Positions 7,446 to 45,519 of a stretch of DNA of 64,000 bases are shown piece by piece; position 1 is the stretch's first letter, and every line of letters starts with the position of its first letter. Source of the DNA: Mobula birostris. Its lineage: Eukaryota. The notes under the pieces were generated by a model. The model was not told the DNA's origin and did not search any database. It worked only from the letters and a program-made list of their open reading frames with translations. The stretch is taken from positions 21,624,427-21,688,426 of the forward strand of contig NC_092390.1 of the NCBI RefSeq assembly GCF_030028105.1. Direction: 5' to 3'. A program made the translations under genes and the position numbers.

Positions 7446-9320
7446 ACATAGAAACATACATAGAAAATAGGTGCAGGAGTAGGCCATTCGGCCCTTCGAG
7501 CCTGCACCGCCATTTATTATGATCATGGCTGATCATCCAACTCAGAACCCCGCCCCAGCCTTCCCTCCATACCCCCTGACCCCCGTAGCCACAAGGGCCA
7601 TATCTAACTCCCTCTTAAATATAGCCAATGAACTGGCCTCAACTGTTTCCTGTGGCAGAGAATTCCACAGATTCACCACTCTCTGTGTGAAGAAGTTTTT
7701 CCTAATCTCGGTCCTAAAAGGCTTCCCCTCTATCCTCAAACTGTGGCCCCTCGTTCTGGACTTCCCCAACATCGGGAACAATCTTCCTGCATCTAGCCTG
7801 TCCAATCCCTTTAGGATCTTATACGTTTCAATCAGATCCCCCCTCAATCTTCTAAATTCCAACGAGTACAAGTCCAGTTCATCCAGTCTTTCTTCATATG
7901 AAAGTCCTGCAATCCCAGGAATCAATCTGGTGAACCTTCTTTGTACTCCCTCTATGGCAAGGATGTCTTTCCTCAGATTAGGGGACCAAAACTGCACACA
8001 ATACTCCAGGTGTGGTCTCACCAAGGCCTTGTACAACTGCAGTAGTACCTCCCTGCTCCAGCACTCGAATCCTTTCGCTATAAATGCCAGCATATCATTC
8101 GCCTTTTTCACCGCCTGCTGTACCTGCATGCCCACTTTCAATGACTGGTGTATAATGACACCCAGGTCTCGTTGCACCTCCCCTTTTCCTAATCGGCCAC
8201 CATTCAGATAATAATCTGTTTTCCTATTTTTGCCACCAAAGTGGATAACTTCACATTTATCCACATTAAATTGCATCTGCCATGAATTTGCCCACTCACC
8301 CAACCTATCCAAGTCACCCTGCATCCTCTTAGCATCCTCCTCACAGCTAACACTGCCACCCAGCTTCGTGTCATCCGCAAACTTGGAGATGCTGCATTTA
8401 ATTCCCTCATCCAAGTCATTAATATATATTGTAAACAACTGAGGTCCCAGCACTGAGCCTTGCGGTACCCCACTAGTCACCGCCTGCCATTCTGAAAAGA
8501 TCCCGTTTATTCCCACTCTTTGCTTCCTGTCTGCTAACCAACTCTCCACCCACACCAATACCTTACCCGCAATACCGTGTGCTTTAAGTTTGCACACTAA
8601 TCTCCTGTGTGGGACCTTGTCAAAAGCCTTCTGAAAATCCAAATATACCACATCCACTGGTTCTCCCCTATCCACTCTACTAGTTACATCCTCAAAAAAT
8701 TGTATGAGATTCGTCAGACATGATTTTCCTTTCACAAATCCATGCTGACTTTGTCCAATCATTTCACCGCTTTCCAAATGTGCTGTTATCACATCCTTGA
8801 TAACTGACTCCAGCAGTTTCCCCACCACCGACGTTAGGCTAACCGGTCTATAATTCCCCGGTTTCTCTCTCCCTCCTTTTTTAAAAAGTGGAGTTACATT
8901 AGCCACCCTCCAATCCTCAGGAACTAGTCCAGAATCTAACGAGTTTTGAAAAATTATCACTAATGCATCCACTATTTCTTGGGCTACTTCCTTAAGCACC
9001 CTGGGATGCAGACCATCTGGCCCTGGGGATTTATCTGCCTTCAATCCCTTCAATTTACCTAACACCACTTCCCTACTAACATGTATTTCGCTCAGTTCCT
9101 CCATCTCACTGGACCCTCTGTCCCCTACTATTTCTGGAAGATTATTTATGTCCTCCTTAGTGAAGACAGAACCAAAGTAATTATTCAATTGGTCTGCCAT
9201 GTCCTTGCTCCCCATAATCAATTCACCTGTTTCTGTCTGCAGGGGACCTACATTTGTCTTTACCAGTCTTTTCCTTTTCACATATCTATAAAAGCTTTTA
9301 CAGTCTGTTTTTATGTTTCC
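7446..9320 (-). mobile_element. Young 5'-truncated CR1 LINE with an uninterrupted RT reading frame
   Basis: No stops from ~9320 to 7542; intact 3'UTR with TATGTTTC-type tail at 7446-7470. Confidence 0.95.
7542..9215 (-). CDS. CR1 ORF2 reverse transcriptase (endonuclease-less, 557 aa from the first in-frame ATG); TE-encoded, expression unknown
   Basis: Motifs KSPGPDG, GNYRPVSLTS, QHGFVKGKSC, YLDFQKAFDKV, SGVPQGSVLGP, FADDTKL, LVRPHLEY, RVVNLWNSLP. Confidence 0.6.
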   Translation of the reverse strand: MGSKDMADQLNNYFGSVFTKEDINNLPEIVGDRGSSEMEELSEIHVSREVVLGKLKGLKADKSPGPDGLHPRVLKEVAQEIVDALVIIFQNSLDSGLVPEDWRVANVTPLFKKGGREKPGNYRPVSLTSVVGKLLESVIKDVITAHLESGEMIGQSQHGFVKGKSCLTNLIQFFEDVTSRVDRGEPVDVVYLDFQKAFDKVPHRRLVCKLKAHGIAGKVLVWVESWLADRKQRVGINGIFSEWQAVTSGVPQGSVLGPQLFTIYINDLDEGIKCSISKFADDTKLGGSVSCEEDAKRMQGDLDRLGEWANSWQMQFNVDKCEVIHFGGKNRKTDYYLNGGRLGKGEVQRDLGVIIHQSLKVGMQVQQAVKKANDMLAFIAKGFECWSREVLLQLYKALVRPHLEYCVQFWSPNLRKDILAIEGVQRRFTRLIPGIAGLSYEERLDELDLYSLEFRRLRGDLIETYKILKGLDRLDAGRLFPMLGKSRTRGHSLRIEGKPFRTEIRKNFFTQRVVNLWNSLPQETVEASSLAIFKRELDMALVATGVRGYGGKAGAGF

Positions 9321-9330
9321 TTTTAAAAAA

Positions 9331-10218
9331 CTTATTTCAGTTACTTTGAATTTCCTTCTGCAGCCTGAGGAAAAGTACACACTCAGGACAACAAATACTT
9401 TTTCGGGTCTTAATTCCTTTATCTGTTTTAGATGTTTAAGTGCCAGTAGAGGGTCGCGGAACAAAACGAACGGATTTACAACCAGTCCTTGCCATTACAA
9501 TCTCAGTTTAACTTTCGATCCACACCCTTGTGTATGAACAGAATTGCGTATTGCAGTATAAAAATACCAGAACTAATACGGTACAAATACGGTAGTGGCA
9601 ATCCTGAAGGAACACAATACAAACAACATTAGAATCCCACCCACCCTGCATCTTATACATAACAGCAAAAAACGTAAGCGAATACATCTCATCTAAGACC
9701 TACACACGTGCTGAACTTCCGAACAGAGATTAAACATTCACGCTACGCGGTTACATGCACAATCAGTCCCAATACAATAAAATTAGACAAAAGGAAAACT
9801 TTGGCACAACTTTTACAAGGTATTGCCTGGTATTTAAATTACAGGAAGACTGACCTACTTGGCTGGTGAGGAACTTTGTATAAGCCACACTACCCAGCGT
9901 CGATTCCTTCACTCGTGGAAATCTAAAGCATTCACATGTAAAACATGTCAAATTACCGATATTCTCGGTCCGCCAACAAGCATAAACGAATTCACATGGA
10001 TAATGTCAATTTATACTCGCCTTTCCACACCATGCCCAGAACACTCTGGGAAGAACCCGATTCCAACGCCTTACCACGTCTTCAGCAGAAAGCAAAATGG
10101 TCTCCCCACTATCCCGCGCATGCGTAATGACATCACCATCTCCCCTTAAAGGCACAGACAACTATTCTAGCATTACCCGGATGGATGCCTAAGTACACTT
10201 TTAACATTACTGAATAAG
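9331..10218 (-). mobile_element. Unclassified CpG-rich LTR-like / promoter-bearing element
   Basis: CpG-rich block with no convincing coding potential. It has imperfect inverted ends (CTTATTTCAGT 9331-9341 / ACTGAATAAG 10209-10218), GCCTTTAAG near the minus-strand 5' end, and NRF1-, CRE- and TATA-like motifs. Confidence 0.45.
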
Positions 10219-21985: not shown

Positions 21986-23100
21986 CCAATTCCACTCCCA
22001 TTCCAGGTATTGTATCCGCCTCTACCATTTCCTCTAGCAGCTCATTCCATATACCCATCCCATTGGGTGGAAAACCTACTGCTCAGTTTCTGTTTAAATC
22101 TTTCTAATTTCATCTTAAACCTATGTGCTCTAGTTTTAGACCCCCATACTGTAAATCAAAAAATATAATCAGTTTGGATGGAGTTAAGAAACAGGAAGGT
22201 GCAGAAAGTATTGATAGGGACAGTACTGTATATAGCCTCCAAACAGTACTGGTATTCTAAAACATAGTATAACCAGAAAATCAAAAGTGCACATTATGAA
22301 GTTAACACAACAATTACAGGGGGTGGGGCTTTTGTAGGACAAACAGGGTAAGAGAAGGAGTGAAGATATAGTAAATGGAATATTACCTGGAAATAGTTGC
22401 GGTCATCTACTTCAGTAGAAAAATAGAAAGGCAGACTATGAATGATTGAAAACATAGTTTTCAGGAGGATCTGGAAGTCTTTGTTCATGAATGACTGAAA
22501 GTTAAAAAGTTCAGAATTTTTAAGGCAGATGATATGCTAGTATTTATTGCAAGAGGATTTAAATACAAAAGCAGAGACTTCCTCCTTCAATTATATAGAA
22601 GATTAGTGAGACTGCATCTGAAATATTGTACACAGTCCTAGCCTTCCTTCAGAAGAAAGGATATACATAATCATGAAAGGGGGAATGTAGTGAAGATTTT
22701 TCATCGCTTACAGGGCTGGAGACTTTTGTCATTGATTGAAAGATTAAGTAGATGAGTACATAGAATAGTCACATAAATATGTACAATATTTGTTAGGGGC
22801 TTGTGAGAGTAGATGCAGAGTTGAAAATTCCCTTGGTTAGAACCAAAACAGAGACACTCAAATGTATTTTACTTGTGGCTGAGATATCAATCTAGACTAA
22901 TCCAGCAGCATATTATTCAGGGCAGGGGCATACTATCAAAGTTGGTTATCTAAAGACTTTGTTTGGAATACTGAAACTATTTTAATTTTAGCTTAAATAT
23001 TTCTCATAAATCCAAATTATCCTTCATTGATGAAGGAGCTGCTTCTTCCATATGGTGTCTGCTCAATAATTAAAATGATATCTTTTCCTTTTTTAATCAG

Positions 23101-24008
23101 GTAACTTGGTGACAGTAGTGATTCTGTCCCGAGGAAAGTGTGGTCTTACCCAATGTATCTCTCGGTATTTGCTGGGCATGGCGGTGGCAGATCTCATGTT
23201 CCTTATCATGGCTGTAGTGTTGCACAGGATCAGTATGTTATATTTTCCAGATCTCCTTCTCCACACCACTCTGGTTTGTAGTGCCAGAGTTGTTCTAATT
23301 CTTATTGCCAGGGACAGCTCAGTCTGGCTAACTGTTGCTTTCACCTTTGATCGATTTATAGCTATTTGTTGCTCAAAGCTGAAAACAGAATTTTGCACCG
23401 AACGAATGGCTGCTGTTGTCATAGCAACAGTTTGTGCTGTGAGCTGCATAAAAAATATTCCTTGGTACTTCATATACGAGCCTCTGTATATAATCAACGA
23501 TGTCCCATGGTACTGTAATATTAAGTTAAGCTTTTACACTGATCTTCTATGGGCTATTCTCGAGTGGATTGACCGTATTTTAACTCCCTTTGCTCCCTTC
23601 CTCTTAATGTTAATTCTCAATGGCCTGACCGTCAGACACATTCTTGTGGCCAGTAGAGCTCGCAGGAGGCTCCAAGTCCAGAGTAATGGTGAGAAACAGA
23701 GTGACCCAGAGATGGAGAACAGGAGGAAGTCTATCATTTTGCTCTTTACCATCTCTGGAAGTTTTATCGTATTATGGATGGCCTACTTTTTAAACTTCCT
23801 TAATGTTCGAATTAAGAGTGGAAATTATTCAACGGGCTCTTCAAATGATCCAACATTCCTTTTCCAGGAGATTGGAATAATGCTGCAACTTCTCAGCTGT
23901 TCCACCAATACATGCACTTATGCTGCAACCCAGAGGAAATTTAGAGAGGAATTCATACATGGATTAACGTACCCTTTCAATCTGCTCATTAAAATGGTAA
24001 AGTCATAA
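23101..24008 (+). CDS. GPR139-like: GPR139-like class A GPCR, coding exon 2 (rest of TM1 to C-terminus); full protein 325 aa
   Basis: Polypyrimidine acceptor TTTTAATCAG| at 23100. Motifs GNLVTVVILSRGKCGL, MAVADL (TM2), FTFDRFIAICC (TM3), DPEMENRRKSIILL, FIVLW (TM6), CSTNTCTY (TM7). No internal stops. Confidence 0.93.
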
Positions 24009-32969: not shown

Positions 32970-34181
32970 TCATATTCTATAAAAAACCCCTGTACCCTTT
33001 AAAAACGCTAAAAATACCCGGACTTGTGCTCTCTCACCCATGCCCAGCAACCCTTTTAATGTGAATTCCTGCATCCCCAACTCCCTTAATTTATTTCTCA
33101 TCATCTCTCTCTGTATCCCATACTTCCTGCAACTCAGAACTACATGTTCTACTGACTCCTCTTCCTGACATTCCTCACACAATCCTGTCTGGTGTTTCCC
33201 TATCATTTTCAATGTTTTGTTTAATGCACAATGCCCCAGCCTTAACCTAGTCCACACAATTTCCTCTCTTCTGTTTCCATTACCTACCCTAGTAACTGCA
33301 ACACTTTTTTGTATTTGATATAAATGCCTCCCTTTCCCCTCCCTGTCCCATCTTTCTTGCCACATTTGGTTGACTTTTTCCCAGATTACACACTTAACCT
33401 CTGCTTTACTGATACTAATGTGCATTTCCACATTTTCTTTCTTTAACACCCTCTTTGCCAACTCATCCACCCTCTCATTCCCCTTCACCCCTACATGTGC
33501 TGGAACCCATAGAAACTTTACCTGACCTCCCTGATTTGCAATTCTTGAAACTAACTGAAGGACTTCATAAAGTACATCTTGCCGACTCTTTGTGTGAAAA
33601 GACCTTAAACTTGCTAGAACTGAGGATGAATCTGAACATATCAATGCTTTGGCTTGTCTGGCTTTCTGCACCCATTGCAACGCAACCAACACTGCCAGCA
33701 TCTCCACTGTAAACACCCCTAACTTATTAGCTGTTCTTCTGCTGATTCCAATTTCTTTTGCTGGTATTACCACCCCAAACCCTGTCTCTCCTGTTTCAGG
33801 TTCCTTCGCACCATCCGTATAAATGTGAGTATAATCACTATACTTTTCCATCACATGACAGTTAAATGCATTTACCAAATCTGTTTTATGTCTTTCTTTC
33901 CTTTTTACCTCTAACAAATGCCAGTCTATGTCAGGCCATACAAGCTTCCATGGAGCTACAACCAGATAAACTACTGAAGGACTTATCCTCAGATCAAATA
34001 CTCCACATTCTTTCGCAATATCATTCCCTACCCGACTTAAGGTATCCCTCTGAAACCTCCCATTTTCCCAGCACTCCTGCAACACTCCTTTAGTAGGGTG
34101 AGAATCATTGTGCCCCTGCAAGTTAGCCCAGTAGTTCGCCATCAGTTGCATCCTTCTTGGTTCCAAAGGCATTATTCCCAT
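32970..34181 (-). CDS. LINE ORF2 C-terminal part: RNase H and CCHC zinc finger (TE-encoded, truncated)
   Basis: IYTDG, E(ML)A, SDS.S, WVPAHVGVKGNERVD RNase H motifs; RLRLGH...CEEC..EESVEH...C. Confidence 0.6.
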   Translation of the reverse strand: MGIMPLEPRRMQLMANYWANLQGHNDSHPTKGVLQECWENGRFQRDTLSRVGNDIAKECGVFDLRISPSVVYLVVAPWKLVWPDIDWHLLEVKRKERHKTDLVNAFNCHVMEKYSDYTHIYTDGAKEPETGETGFGVVIPAKEIGISRRTANKLGVFTVEMLAVLVALQWVQKARQAKALICSDSSSVLASLRSFHTKSRQDVLYEVLQLVSRIANQGGQVKFLWVPAHVGVKGNERVDELAKRVLKKENVEMHISISKAEVKCVIWEKVNQMWQERWDREGKGRHLYQIQKSVAVTRVGNGNRREEIVWTRLRLGHCALNKTLKMIGKHQTGLCEECQEEESVEHVVLSCRKYGIQREMMRNKLRELGMQEFTLKGLLGMGERAQVRVFLAFLKGTGVFYRI

Positions 34182-36469
34182 TTCTACCTGTAGGGCCTCT
34201 GAATGCTACCAGCAGTTTCTGTTTTTATTAATGAAACGATTCACTATAGTTACTATCACATCATCCAATCACTTTAGAGCCATGGGCTTGGTTCACTTAA
34301 CAGGCCAGTTATCCATTTGCAGGCTCTTCAGTAGGATATTCCTGCAGATTGTCTTTAGTCAACAACTGGTGAGCATCTCAAAGCTTGAATATGGAAAGGC
34401 AGCCTGAATTATGATGTGCTATCAAGATTTGAAAAGCTTAACGAGGTCAGTAGATGGTTTGCAATACCATAAAATAAGATCTATGATATTGGGATTAAAG
34501 TAATTTGAATTGGAGTATAATAAAGTTTAGAAATAATTGGATGCCGAAACAGACTTGGAGGTGAATGGATGAGTGCTACAATTCAGTGTTAGAAATTGTA
34601 AATGAAACACTGACCCAAGAAAAGATTCTGTGGTTCCAGAAATAAAGATTGTGCTGTTCTTAGCAAAATCTTTCTGCTTCCACTTGTTTACCGTTTTACA
34701 TACTTGGCATTTTTCTACCACAAAAGGGCAGAACTATTGAAATTCTTGAATTTATTTAATGTTAATCATGGGATTTTATCTTCCGATTATATAGCTGAAT
34801 ATTTTAGTAGTCAGGAAACTGTTCCTCCGCAAAAGTACGGTGCCCAACAATAAAGAGGGAGACAAACAGTTAAAGTTTTTTAATTTATATCTGACATGTT
34901 TTGTAAGAACAGGATTTAGCACCTTCACCATCCGAATTGCTACACCAATAGAGTGGCTAAAGATAACTTCATGCAATGGTAGCTTCAATGATTTTGTGAA
35001 ACTTAAGACCTACTATACATTAGATCAATCAATGTTTGTGCAATTCATAAATTGAGATGATTTGTCCTGTGCTGTCTGGTGTATCAATTAGTGAAAGCAT
35101 TAAATATACCTTGGGTACAGTTTCTTGCCTGGACTCAGTTACATATATTACATATATAATTGCCAAACAAAACAAACTGGAGATCCTGGTAATATGAAAA
35201 TAATATTCAATAGGATATTAAATTTCATTCCTATGACCATTATGTTATTGTACGTGCAATATCAAACCCTGGGAAAGCACATAGTGGTTCCAGATCTGTG
35301 GTGGGACTTATAGTTCAAGGACCTTCCACATTCTTTCCGTAATTGGGAATGTAGTTGGTGGTTTCACTTGTGAGGTTGAATATGGGAACATGGGAATTCG
35401 AGGTCTGGGACTGTCCATGGAGATTCAGGAAAGAGTCACTTGAAAACAGTTCCAGCTCAAGGATTCCACATCCAGATTCCAGTCAGGGGTGTGCATGGAG
35501 ATGTCAGTTCTGAAAATGTCGTTAGACATTCCACCTTTGGGTCAGTATACTAATCTTGGAAATGTGCACTGGAATTCCAGGCTCAGAAGTCCTGATTCAT
35601 TCTGTTTTTGATGACTAGAAATCTTTACTTCCTTTCTCTGCTTATTGATGCTGGACACGTTCAGCAGATTGGTCAGCATTTTTCCATTTTGATTTTATAT
35701 TTCCAGTATCCGCACTGCAATTGTTTTTCAAAATTGCTTGGAGTATGGATGTTTCTAAGAAAGCCTGGATTAAATGGCAAGTAGCATAACTACATAAGAA
35801 ATTGGGCAAGAGTAGACAACATGGAGAAAATGACATAGATCATTCTATTTCGATTTCAGTATTTAAGAGAAATTTGGACGGATGGAAGGGATATGGAGGG
35901 CCATGGTCCAGTTGCAGGCCATTAAGACGAGGCAAATTAATAGTTCAGCACAGGCTACATGGACCAAAAGGGCCTGTTTCTGTGTGGTAGTGCTCTATGG
36001 CTCCACGATCTTTCTCCATAACTCCACTTAATTAATCCCAATGTAACTTGCTTTCCTTGAGTTTACAAGCTGCTAGTCTCCATCTTGAATTTATTTAATG
36101 GCTTGCTGGACTCAGATCTAGAACTGCTAATGGAGGTTTTGGACCTTGCATTTTCTTTGGCAGATCTGGACTTGGAGGTGTCCATAGTCCTGGGACTATA
36201 AGTGGACGTTCAAACCATATGGAAGTGTACTTTCAGATTCCATTCCTGTAACACTACATGTCTTAGCTGATGATCTTAGTTATCTGTTAGCTAAATCAGC
36301 ACGTGAACTTCTTTACAGTGGTTATTGATGGAAAGAACCAAAAGACCTGTATAAAGCACAGGTCTTAGTAGAACATGTGTCAACTTGATAATGGATTGAG
36401 GATAGGTGTAAATAAAAATTAGCTAGTAACATTAAAAAAATTATCCTGGGGAAGTTGAATTGTGATTGT

Positions 36470-40680: not shown

Positions 40681-41418
40681 CATCAGGGTGACAGCCCTTC
40701 TTCAGTGCCCAGGAAGCAGAAGGGCCCAGAGGAGATTCATGAGAATGATCCCAGGAATGAAAGGGTGTTTGATGGCTCTGGGCCCGTACTCACTGGAGTT
40801 TAGAAGAATGAGAACCATGGAAACCGACCGAAATGGGCCAAGAAGAGCTTAGATTATTTTTGGTAGCTGCAAATTAATGGTCATAGGATTCTACGTCATG
40901 TTGCTTAGTACTATGAAAGTATGAATGAAAACCTCTCCTAGGCTAATCCCATTGGTCAATGCCCAGGATTCTTGAAATAGTTATGTAGTACATCATTGAT
41001 TTTAACTTGGGACTCCTCCCGCAGGATTCCCTAAAGGTTAACTTGCAGGCTGAGTTGGCGGTAAGGAAGACAAATGCAATGTTAGCATTCATTTCAAGAA
41101 GAAAAGAATATTAAAGACTCAAATATATAATGCTGAGGCTTTATATGGCACAGGTCAGACCACAATTAGAATACTGTGAGCAGTTTTGGGCCCTTTATCT
41201 AAGGAAGTATATGCAAGCATTGAAGAGGGCCCAGAGAAAGTTTATGAGAATGATCCCAGGAATGAAAGGGTTAATGTATGCCAAGTGTTTGACGGCTCTG
41301 GGCCTGTACTCACTGGGGCTTAGAAGGACGAGAATCATAGAAACCTACTGAATATTGAAAGGGCGAGTTAGAGAGGACGTGAAGAGGATGAGTCCAATAC
41401 CAGAGGACATATCCTCAG

Positions 41419-41657
41419 TGTTGTAGATTTGATATTTCAATGATATTTAAGTAAACTTGTGTTTGATTACACATTCTTGTTCATTTAAATAATTAATTAT
41501 GGGTTATAAGTAAAAATACATTAATTGCATCTGTCGTCACGCTACCACATGATATGTGCACACCTCGCTTAAAGTAAACTCAAAGTTAGACTCACATTTC
41601 AGACTCCTATGTCTTCCTTTGAATTGGTTTAATGTTTTGAAGTTACCAAACATAACA
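41419..41657 (+). repeat. 5' LTR
   Basis: TGTTGTAG...CATAACA; direct repeat of 44062-44297. Confidence 0.93.
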
Positions 41658-43061
41658 TTGGCAACAAGGTATTTTTAACACAACTCCGAGATAGCTACTG
41701 ACCTATTCAGAAGGATGGACACGACTGAGTTTAAAAGAAGGCTGTGAATGGAAGGATTCAGGGTTCATAAAGAGTGTGTATCAGGTGAAAATAATCATTA
41801 AAAAAGGCAGAAATGGTTGGATACATTGGAAAGATTGACCAGTTTGATTATACAATGGGTAATTGACTCATGTATACTGAGCTATTGGAACAGTATTCTG
41901 AAGCAAGTGAAGTAGTCAATGAGAAGCAAGTGCCAATGTTGCTGAGTGCATTGGGTTTAAAGGCATACAGTTTGCTTCGATGTTTGACTGCTCCAGCAAA
42001 ACCATCGGAAATGAGCTTTGCTGCTATTGTAAAAGTAATGCAGGAACACTTAGAACATAAAGCCACTGTTGACTGCAGAACATTTCAGGTTTCACAAACA
42101 GAATCAAAATGAAGGGGAACCCATTTCAGCTTATGTGGCTGAATTGAAAAGATTGTCTGAGCATTGTCAGTTCTGTAATGGACTTAATGATGCACTGAGA
42201 GATCGTTAAGTTTGCAGAATCTTAAAAGAAGGCTTTCAAGAATGGCTCCTAACTGAAACACAACTTACATTTAGAAGAGCAGTTGAAATAGCTGTATCAA
42301 TGGAAACAGCAGACAGAGATACAATTGAGTTTCGGTCAGGAATGAAAGTGAACATGAACAAAATTATAGTGTCTAAACAAAAACCAGACTGGTTAAACAA
42401 ATCATCTTACCGTTGTTACAAGGTCTCACGTACGCCTGACCAAAGCAGTTTTAAAGGCAAAACATATAGAAAATGCAACAAAATAGGACACAAATAGAGC
42501 ATGCAGGGCAGACAGAAATAAATGGACTGCACAGGGAAGAGAAAAAGCTAAAAAGTAAAGTTAAAGTTTCAAAAAGATCATTAATCTGCACGCTGTTGGT
42601 GAAAAATTTGATAACGATGAGAGTGACACAGGACTGTGTAGCCATGAGAACTGTTGTGTGAAATTTAATAAATGATAAGCATTACGGCTTACACCAGAAG
42701 TGAATGGTAAATTAATTAAAGTGGAATTGGACACTGGCTCAGCTGTTTCAGTCATTCTACAAAATGAGTTTGAGAGGCATTTCAAAGATATTAAACTGAA
42801 GCCTGCAGATATCCAACTAAGAACTTATACTGGAGAAAAGATGACTTATGTGATAATGACATTTGTAACTGTGAAATACAACAACAAACAAGCCACACTG
42901 AGCTTTAATGTGGTAAAAATAGGAGGACCAGCATTGTGGGGCGTGAATGACTGAAACAACTACAACTTGATGGGAGAGCCATCCATCATTTGTATGCATC
43001 ATCCCCTATAATATAGTCAAATGCAGGTGAATCAATAAAGGTGCTTGATGATGCCACAACT

Positions 43062-43745
43062 GTCCCTATACCAAATACTATGAACCATTGCCCAACAGAG
43101 CACAAACAGAAGTTGGTTCCAACCTCTGTTCTTCTGTTTGAAAACCATATTGGACCATGGAGGGACCATGTTGCTCAAAGGAATCATGAAAGTGTCGAAA
43201 GTAGGGGTCCGACTACAATAGTTTTTGTATACAGCATATCTGAGATATGTTCAGGCAGTTACTTGCAAATTGTGGCTTGGGTTAGCTGGGAGAGAGTTCA
43301 AGGAGCTTCAGGAAAGTTGGAAGCATTTGGCTTCTGTGAAGATAAAGAACAAGAATCTACTCTGTGCATTAAAGTTATTTCATAAACTTCAAATGGGGAA
43401 CAAAAAGTTGCTTGTAAAAGTAGATGCAAAGACCAAAGCCCAGCTGGATAAATGGAAGGTCAAAAAAAAAGGAGTCAATGGAGATATGAAAACAGTGGAT
43501 TTGCCAAATGATATTGTGGATGAGGAAACCAAGAGGAGAGATCAGATCGTAACGGGAACAATAGAAATATTAATATGAGAATACTCCAGTGAACTGAATG
43601 CACTTTCTGAAGTTCAAGATGCACAAACTAGAAGAAAAAGGAGGGAAGAGGTGGACTGAAATAATGTCAATGTGAAAGAGGAGGGACGCAAGTAAAAAAA
43701 GAAAGAGATCAAAGTAAATCTAAAGAAAGAAAAGGGAAAGAAAGG
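43062..43745 (+). pseudogene. RBM25: Processed (intronless) RBM25 fragment, RRM region, with frameshifts and stops
   Basis: Across three frames: LVPT..GPTTIVFV.SISE / DMFRQLLANCGL / SWERVQGASGKLEAFGFCE.KE.ESTL / ALKLFHKLQMGNKKLLVKVDAKTKAQLDKWK.KKK..DEETKRRDQ...IEILI*EYSSELNA. This is colinear with vertebrate RBM25. Confidence 0.9.
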
Positions 43746-44061
43746 TGTCGAGAGCTGTCAGAACCTCTTCCTGCAGCTTCAGAGTCAACACCTACAACCA
43801 CCACGGAGGAGGTCTCACACCTGAGTTTGTTACCACATCCACAGATCTCACCTGTGAAGCAGAATGATCACCAGGAAAGACGTTAACCCACCAGAGCAAG
43901 AAGCCTTCCACAGAGATTAAATATTTATGCCTGAATAGGACAATTTAAAATTTACTATGCCATAGATGTCTGTACATTGTAGTTGTATTATATAATATAC
44001 TGCATATAGATTTGAGAAGCATTCTCTACTAAGTTGGATTTTGTAGCCAAGCAGGGAGAGG

Positions 44062-44297
44062 TGTTGTATATTTGATACTTCAGTAATATTGTATATATAT
44101 TGTTTGATTAGGCATTCTTGTACTTTTAAATAATTAATTACGGGTTATATGTAAAAGTACTTTAATTGCATATGTCATCACGCTACAACATGATATGTTT
44201 AAGCCTCGCCTAAGTAAACTCAAAGTTAGACTCACATTTCGAACTCCTGTGCCTTCCTTTGAATTAGTTTAATATTTTGCAGTTATAAAACATAACA
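44062..44297 (+). repeat. 3' LTR
   Basis: TGTTGTAT...CATAACA, preceded by a polypurine tract. Confidence 0.93.
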
Positions 44298-45519
44298 GTG
44301 AGAATTGAAGGATGTCCCTTTAGAACAGAGATGAGAAATTCCTTTAGCCAATGGGTAGTGAATTTGTGGAGTCCATTGCTACAGATGGCTGTAGATGGAA
44401 AGTCACTGCGCATATTTAAAGCAGAGGTTGATAGTTTCTTAGTTAGTAATGGTGTAAAGGTTACAGGGGGAAGGCAGGGGAAAGGGATCGTGAGGGAAAA
44501 TGGTCAAAGGGCAAAGCAGAATCGATGGGCCAAATAGGCTAATTCATCTTATGGCCTTATGGTCATGAAGTCATGGAAAAACCTATATAAATGCAATTCT
44601 TGCAGCAACTCAATGCATTGAATATAATCAAGATAATGCTAACTACGTCAGAATAGCAAAGCCGGAATCAGTCAACCACATATCTTCTGGTAATTACCTA
44701 TAAAGCACGATGAAGGTTCTTTGAATTCAAACATTAACTCTGCTTCTTCTCGCTGGTGCTGCCTGACCTGCTGAGTGAGACCAGAATTTTGTGTTTTACC
44801 TCAGCAAATTTAAAATTTACTTTCAGGATTCCTAATTTAGTCTATCTCAGGGGCTCCCTGTCACAATGGTCACCTGATGCTTCAAACACTCCATTGTACT
44901 CGTTCCATCCCCATCGGTGTTCTACCTCAATTTGCTCGTTTCACGTACCACGATTCAGCAGCAGGTTGGTAGATCTGATGTGCTTGTTCCATTACCTATT
45001 TCTGTTTTTTATCAAGCATAATACTGGAGTCTAAATTAGTTTTATGACATATGCCAAAGATATTAAACCTGACTCTGATTGTTGTTCTGCTGTCCTTAAT
45101 CGACAACAGACTTCAAACAAAATACTGTCTGAGTACATCCTCTGTTGTTAACTTTGATTTATCTTGAGCTAGATAATCATCATGCTTTGATTCTCGGCTG
45201 TATTGACAAAAATAGCACCTGCTTAACAAATTATAGCATTAAAACAATCTAAGGGCGCATGAGAACACTCTGAAACGTTTCACTATTTATTTCATTTACA
45301 AATTTCTCTCTTGAGAGTGAGTATTTTTATATATTTTCCCCAAGCTATATTCCTGTGTGCAGCATTTATATATTTCATGGGGATTTTGTGTAGTAGTTGC
45401 CTTTATTTGCAGTGTAGTTTGCTTCACCTGATGTACCTGAACCAAATTTATCAGTGCCGTGAGCTGGATTATAAGCAATAAGTTTAGAACTGGAAAAGGA
45501 TCTAGTGCTTTCCTCATAT

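Follow-up and report, generated by a model that had tools for sequence, protein, structure and literature searches.

LTR-mediated retroposition, including secondary retroposition, is a described mechanism in animals (Tan et al. 2016, PMC5131818). In the available text of that study, a partial spliced mRNA replaces the internal ORF of an LTR element, donor and element match over a short stretch at each of the two switch points (in flies, a median of 6 bp), and the retrocopies lack a poly(A), retain both LTRs and have passed through further rounds of retroposition. The loci are few, with 5/7 retrocopies in zebrafish, 4/10 in chicken, 8 in mouse and 3 in human (PMC5131818). A comparable event is the HERV-K capture of FAM8A1, in which a vertebrate LTR element took up a processed mRNA of its host and the sequences match briefly where they are fused (PMC5131818). 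The mechanism is known from plants as well: maize Bs1 is a non-autonomous LTR element with captured exons and common switch points (PMC5131818, PMC13317346), and Gypsy and Copia elements have multiplied captured exons in the large genomes of conifers (PMC13477047).

Here we describe a vertebrate element that resembles these systems in the features named. It occupies positions 41419-44297 of the window, the whole 64,000-nucleotide stretch of Mobula birostris DNA analysed, and is a single decayed copy from a large Gypsy LTR family of non-autonomous elements. The literature on RBM25-bearing or cartilaginous-fish LTR retrocopies yielded no paper that describes the family; Repbase or Dfam may already catalogue it.

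Architecture of the element

The window copy is a Ty3/Gypsy LTR retrotransposon, with direct LTRs, a primer-binding site (PBS), a polypurine tract (PPT) and a target-site duplication (TSD) in the 4-6 bp range; the domain order of this group is seen in its parent copies. A preliminary description made from the sequence had listed LTRs, PBS, gag, protease and PPT, all of which could be located. It had also stated that the pol core is gone, and indeed about 700 bp of RBM25 mRNA stands in for reverse transcriptase (RT), RNase H and integrase. The features are as follows.

41414-41418, no strand: left TSD copy CTCAG, within a LINE-like repeat
41419-41657, plus strand: 5' LTR, 239 bp, TG...CA
41659-41669, plus strand: PBS, 9/11 nt complementary to the tRNA-Ser(GCT) 3' end
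41813-42680, plus strand: gag with stops and frameshifts (tblastn to P0121 and P0122)
42682-43051, plus strand: aspartic protease and linker, broken; DTG at 42730-42738
43052-43058, plus strand: 5' switch point, 7 nt TGCCACA found both in parent pol and in exon 3 of RBM25, with the frame kept
43052-43061, plus strand: final 10 nt of RBM25 exon 3
43062-43109, plus strand: RBM25 cassette exon, 48 nt
43110-43482, plus strand: RBM25 exons 4, 5 and 6 (RRM domain), spliced; frameshifted in the window copy
43483-43625, plus strand: most of RBM25 exon 7; end approximate
43626-43734, plus strand: E/R-rich remnants of RBM25 exon 9 and the first part of exon 10, with internal deletions; borders approximate
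43735-43743, plus strand: 3' switch point, 9-nt purine run common to RBM25 exon 10 and pol tail, out of frame
43744-44048, plus strand: end of parent-element pol and 3' untranslated part
44049-44061, plus strand: PPT
44062-44297, plus strand: 3' LTR, 236 bp
44298-44302, no strand: right TSD copy GTGAG, 3/5 bases matching the left copy

The two LTRs, both TG...CA, differ by 14%. Both PBS mismatches (2/11) are of the CpG type, and the tRNA genes with a 3' end fitting the PBS are tRNA-Ser(GCT) at 4/4 loci tested. Exact matches to the tRNA-Ser(GCT) 3' end were also seen scattered along one contig, C17 (73/85; L176, L177). The gag-protease region matches a fish Gypsy-like protein with E 9e-94. Matches to the polyprotein P0122 end at residue 395, short of RT, and RT, RNase H and integrase, which an autonomous Ty3/Gypsy element carries, are missing from the window copy. 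Pfam matches its protease weakly, at E 1.9e-4 and short of the cut-off, and its own RRM pieces and gag gave no Pfam match better than E 0.1; RRM_1 was matched in the insert of sister copies. When a 60-aa piece from the window was searched against PDB sequences, weak RRM-type matches alone came back (E >1).

The LINE-like repeat that holds the element continues across the insertion site in repeat copies without it. By eye, a perfect 5-bp TSD flanks 3/16 two-LTR copies (L010, L125, L092), which a scripted finder passed over on account of their mutated LTR ends. The absence of a TSD or poly(A) around the RBM25 segment itself, noted in the preliminary description, stands; the whole element, however, has a decayed 5-bp TSD.

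Elsewhere in the window, a 303-aa open frame on the plus strand (23097-24008) matches rhodopsin-family GPCRs (7tm_1, E 2.7e-21) and is probably a single-exon receptor gene. Two frames on the minus strand, of 650 aa with a reverse transcriptase match (7542-9494) and of 411 aa with an RNase H match (32970-34205), likely belong to younger retroelements.

A spliced RBM25 fragment

The open frame of a sister copy identifies the insert: the named proteins among its 120 listed matches are RBM25 (best E 2e-61, at most 76% identity), a few of the 120 being unnamed, hypothetical or RRM-only. Host RBM25 lies at C1:154.44-154.49 Mb, on a contig other than that of the window. Its AG/GT-bounded exons measure 106, 50, 48, 171, 58, 161, 177, 84, 335 and 115 nt, and the introns between those represented in the insert span 1.7 to 6 kb. 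The window insert matches these exons in succession at 80-88%, with zero intron sequence. RBM25 is multi-exonic and no intron is kept, so the template was an mRNA, as the preliminary description had argued.

The window insert opens with the end of exon 3, followed by the 48-nt cassette, by exons 4 to 7 and by parts of exons 9 and 10; an internal deletion has removed the end of exon 7 and exon 8. Across the family, the captured span begins in the last part of exon 3 and stops in the first part of exon 10. The earlier assignment to RBM25 is thus right in identity, with host-derived sequence starting at 43052 and not at 43062. The K/E/R-rich segment placed after it is present as well and likewise belongs to RBM25, where it corresponds to exons 9-10 that have lost internal parts. 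At the window locus, neither a poly(A) nor a duplication flanks the insert, and a search of the genome with the RBM25 C-terminus found the host gene only (3 matches among 10 candidates).

The annotated RBM25 of Heptranchias includes the peptide encoded by the 48-nt cassette (host L047:5900-5947), and in another database protein the cassette joins exon 3 to exon 4; as judged from these proteins, it is a genuine exon. The peptide is absent from five further RBM25 proteins viewed, which are in part from bony vertebrates. By hand count, the host protein and that of Heptranchias differ at 7 of about 200 residues.

Several observations concern the host gene. An alternative acceptor gives four extra residues in P0139 and P0141; the Mobula genome has a stop codon there. 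A PWI-domain search matched L031-L033 on C35 and C3, which were rejected as RBM25 candidates, being other PWI-domain genes. Two LTR-only matches to the family (L040:3702-3951 and L043:1316-1558) are found on the strand opposite to host RBM25, at 36 and 64 kb upstream of its start codon, a proximity that is likely due to chance because the family is large.

RT-bearing relatives and the switch points

A search with the post-protease region gave 6,364 candidates, of which 150 were scored and 30 fetched. Of these RT-bearing relatives, 28/30 follow the window element to 43058 or nearby and then run into RT; among the extended RT-bearing copies, 7/20 continue to integrase and the tail also seen in the chimera. 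The parent copies are colinear with P0122, in the domain order protease, RT, RNase H, integrase (PR-RT-RH-IN). K02A2.6-like Gypsy polyproteins, which may be of the Mag clade to judge by the protein names, share with the parent a single gag-pol frame and the PR-RT-RH-IN order, and are 45-59% identical to the element over the protease. They possess RT, RNase H and integrase, whereas the window copy does not.

Comparison of the two forms shows that about 2.5 kb of pol is replaced in the chimera, not split. At the 5' junction, TGCCACA (7 nt) is common to the parent and RBM25 exon 3 and the frame is kept, while at the 3' junction nine purines, 7/9 of them kept in the window copy, are common to the parent tail and exon 10 and the frame is lost. 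At random switch points, matches of at least 7 nt have a chance of 6e-4 and those of at least 9 nt a chance of 6e-5. These two matches back the earlier proposal that the chimera arose by template switching. The family also holds a second non-autonomous derivative of the parent, without host sequence, in three copies (L075, L085, L091); its deletion opens early in integrase, closes at the 3' tail site that the chimera uses too, and carries a 6-nt match.

A large dispersed family

A 33-nt probe across the 5' junction matched 270 loci at no more than one mismatch (59 exactly); the matching parent probe found 598 loci and reversed controls 0. The preliminary description had considered that the chimera could have been amplified as a family, and the many dispersed loci that share these junctions within LTRs of this element bear it out. 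By extrapolation, the chimeras likely number 1,200-2,800. The recovery of 7/30 independently chosen copies by the junction probe gives about 1,160, and the Poisson estimate is 2,100. Their share of the family is about 31% by the probes and about 34% by a sample of protease-motif copies, weighted by 487 loci for the common allele and 55 for the derived allele. The 60 copies in this sample comprise 30 with RBM25, 26 with pol and 4 with neither, and no other recognisable insert was found among them. The common allele accounts for 8 RBM25, 20 pol and 2 undetermined copies (n=30), the derived allele for 22, 6 and 2 (n=30).

An insert-only search gave 2,812 candidates, of which 40 were scored and 30 fetched. 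All 30 lie inside the element, with gag-protease flanks and LTR or tail sequence, and no free-standing RBM25 retrocopy occurs among them. In a sample of 90 copies selected by the 5' part of the insert, 79/90 begin at the same first mRNA base. The spliced junctions are present in 84 (exon 3/cassette), 84 (cassette/4), 82 (4/5), 85 (5/6) and 77 (6/7) of the copies and, in the 3' part, in 8 (7/8), 9 (8/9) and 14 (9/10). That the copies agree in their junctions points to a single capture, after which the chimera was amplified by means of a helper and underwent internal deletions; these fall at purine-rich repeats. Since the rare exon 8-bearing copies have a parent-like gag-protease and the shorter copies are richer in derived alleles, the sequences point to a single long capture with later deletion. 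The alternatives named at the outset, a better match than RBM25, retained introns or a single locus with its own TSD and poly(A), are thus at odds with what was found.

Age and distribution

The median divergence between paired LTRs is 0.22 substitutions per site in 14 chimeras (0.16-0.34) and also 0.22 in two parents. Pairwise identities for the chimera and parent sets are 0.80, 0.80 and 0.795, i.e. the sets are equally diverged. A tree of 30/52 chimeras and 23 parents is star-like, with a p-AU of 0.97 for one origin, and the free search gave a worse tree than the constrained search; the single origin that we infer from the sequences is neither rejected nor proven by it.

Parts of the element are present in nine organisms; no RNA data set was among those listed as containing it, which says nothing on expression. 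In organisms B, C and F (four sequencing runs examined, their types partly guessed), contigs extend across the spliced junctions, and in organism B a match of 98% spans the 3' junction and is found in the flank too. Given an LTR divergence of 0.22 against a 98% match in B, the family is likely much older than the split from that organism. Contigs from one run, presumed to be RNA, lie on gag and on the insert, and none of those listed crosses a junction.

Proposed origin and mobilisation

Our preferred reading, to which we give a probability of about 0.9, is that the chimera of Gypsy element and spliced RBM25 arose by two template switches and was likely mobilised by the enzymes of its parent. 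Following the published model (PMC5131818), an RBM25 mRNA would have been packaged with the element RNA in one particle; RT would have jumped to it and then back, yielding a product that retains the LTRs, the primer site and the PPT. The enzymes of the RT-bearing parent would have copied this product in trans, after a single capture shortly before the burst. Further switching could have partly deleted the repeats of the E/R region and exchanged gag-protease with helpers.

The copies are 87% identical to host RBM25 (84/90 with enough overlap), and near-fixed differences from the present host gene number 16 synonymous and 1 non-synonymous in 585 nt. The near-fixed synonymous changes come to about 0.12 per synonymous site, in agreement with the roughly 0.10 by which the copies themselves have decayed, so that the host gene would have drifted for as long as the copies have decayed. 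This fits a capture just before the burst.

Captured sequence as a probable passenger

The insert's variants look neutral, with 1976 non-synonymous and 677 synonymous changes among the rare ones and 6 and 0 among the common ones. Purifying selection on the captured coding sequence was not detected, the common variants being few and the power low. The best 150 of 5,715 candidates, 62-84% identical to the shark RBM25 piece, include no domesticated or conserved copy, and the top 12 of the scored candidates have pN values of 0.08-0.11, the same as the others. Any hint that the dispersed RRM copies are functional therefore finds no support, and the RBM25 part is likely a passenger.

A variant of this origin holds that the chimera was semi-autonomous and that the capture aided its spread, either through a selected in-frame Gag-protease-RRM fusion or through better expression, packaging or export. 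The 5' junction is in frame, the RRM exons are retained while exons 8-9 are frequently lost, and the chimera came to make up about a third of the family. Moreover, common variants of the chimera gag-protease are enriched for synonymous changes (19:22 vs 1727:492, p 1e-5), and those absent from sampled parents comprise 14 synonymous and 6 non-synonymous changes (n=20), so that Gag and protease may have been produced by the chimera itself. Applied to the parent gag-protease as a positive control, the test gave no signal (22:9, p 0.53), and the control thus failed. However, the insert has no such synonymous excess (6:0, small numbers), and per codon its common variants are only a quarter as many as those of gag-protease (6/195 vs 41/306), as would fit exchange of gag-protease with helper lineages. 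We consider such exchange the likelier cause of the excess, because the derived haplotype also occurs in 6 pol-bearing copies next to the 22 RBM25 copies of 30. No parent copy among 45 profiled carries most of the chimera-enriched alleles. The loss of exons 8-9 is also to be read against deletions at purine-rich repeats and a 90-copy sample chosen by the 5' part. On balance, we regard it as unlikely that the RBM25 piece is other than a passenger. Were it so, a retrotransposon bearing part of a splicing factor would have taken over a third of its own family, and thousands of RBM25-like copies could also feed small RNAs against the host gene.

Other routes to the chimera

Template switching with mobilisation in trans also has to be weighed against a recombination at the DNA level that joined a Gypsy copy to an older retrocopy of RBM25, or against many independent captures. 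Short junction matches are typical of DNA repair too, and the tree does not establish monophyly; but all 30 fetched insert loci lie in the element with no free retrocopy among them, and identical switch points in most copies would be unlikely from separate events. We judge this pair of scenarios very improbable.

Slightly less probable again is a LINE-made processed pseudogene of RBM25 that inserted into a Gypsy element, the composite then being amplified. LINE reverse transcriptases are abundant in the window and the insert is intronless, yet some 2.5 kb of pol was replaced rather than interrupted, the mRNA 3' part, a poly(A) and an own duplication are all absent, sequence common to the parent is found at both insert ends, and the C-terminus search recovers the host gene only. 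This route is largely refuted.

An assembly artefact or segmental duplication, suggested by a few near-identical copies (top pair 98%) and three equal-scoring matches on C35 and C3561, is refuted by copies on more than 25 large contigs that are about 80% alike, with differing flanks and their own target duplications, and by the 98% match across the 3' junction in organism B. The near-identical chimeras L155 and L156, about 100 kb apart on C35, and a third on the small contig C3561 are a recent duplication or an unmerged haplotype.

Comparison with known systems

The family preserves a record of the steps of its making, in the form of both switch points, nested deletions and helper exchange. 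It also preserves an old spliced RBM25 isoform, whose cassette exon was seen only in cartilaginous-fish proteins among those viewed. In practice, copies may be mis-annotated as RBM25 paralogues and the real gene may be repeat-masked, while the insertions could serve as markers for sharks and rays. Whether silencing of a captured fragment spreads to the donor gene becomes testable in an animal.

Set against the available text of the published accounts, the differences are mainly of scale. In the cases of Tan et al., young copies are transcribed (PMC5131818), whereas the RBM25 chimera is known here from genomic sequence; unlike them, it grew from one chimera into a family with subfamilies and likely over a thousand copies. 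The HERV-K/FAM8A1 case is a single one and concerns an endogenous retrovirus (PMC5131818), in contrast to a highly amplified Gypsy element. For conifers, the average of about 39 TEs per donor gene concerns plants and pools all TE classes, the mechanism being unresolved for individual families (PMC13477047). Bs1 has 1-5 copies, three donor genes and a translated chimeric gene (PMC5131818, PMC13317346), whereas the RBM25 chimera draws on a single donor, likely exceeds a thousand copies and shows no conserved product among the sequences seen. An LTR-captured mRNA can thus become a major vertebrate repeat family, hundreds of times above the copy number of Bs1. The mechanism is known; the new point is its scale in a vertebrate, far above that of the published animal cases found.
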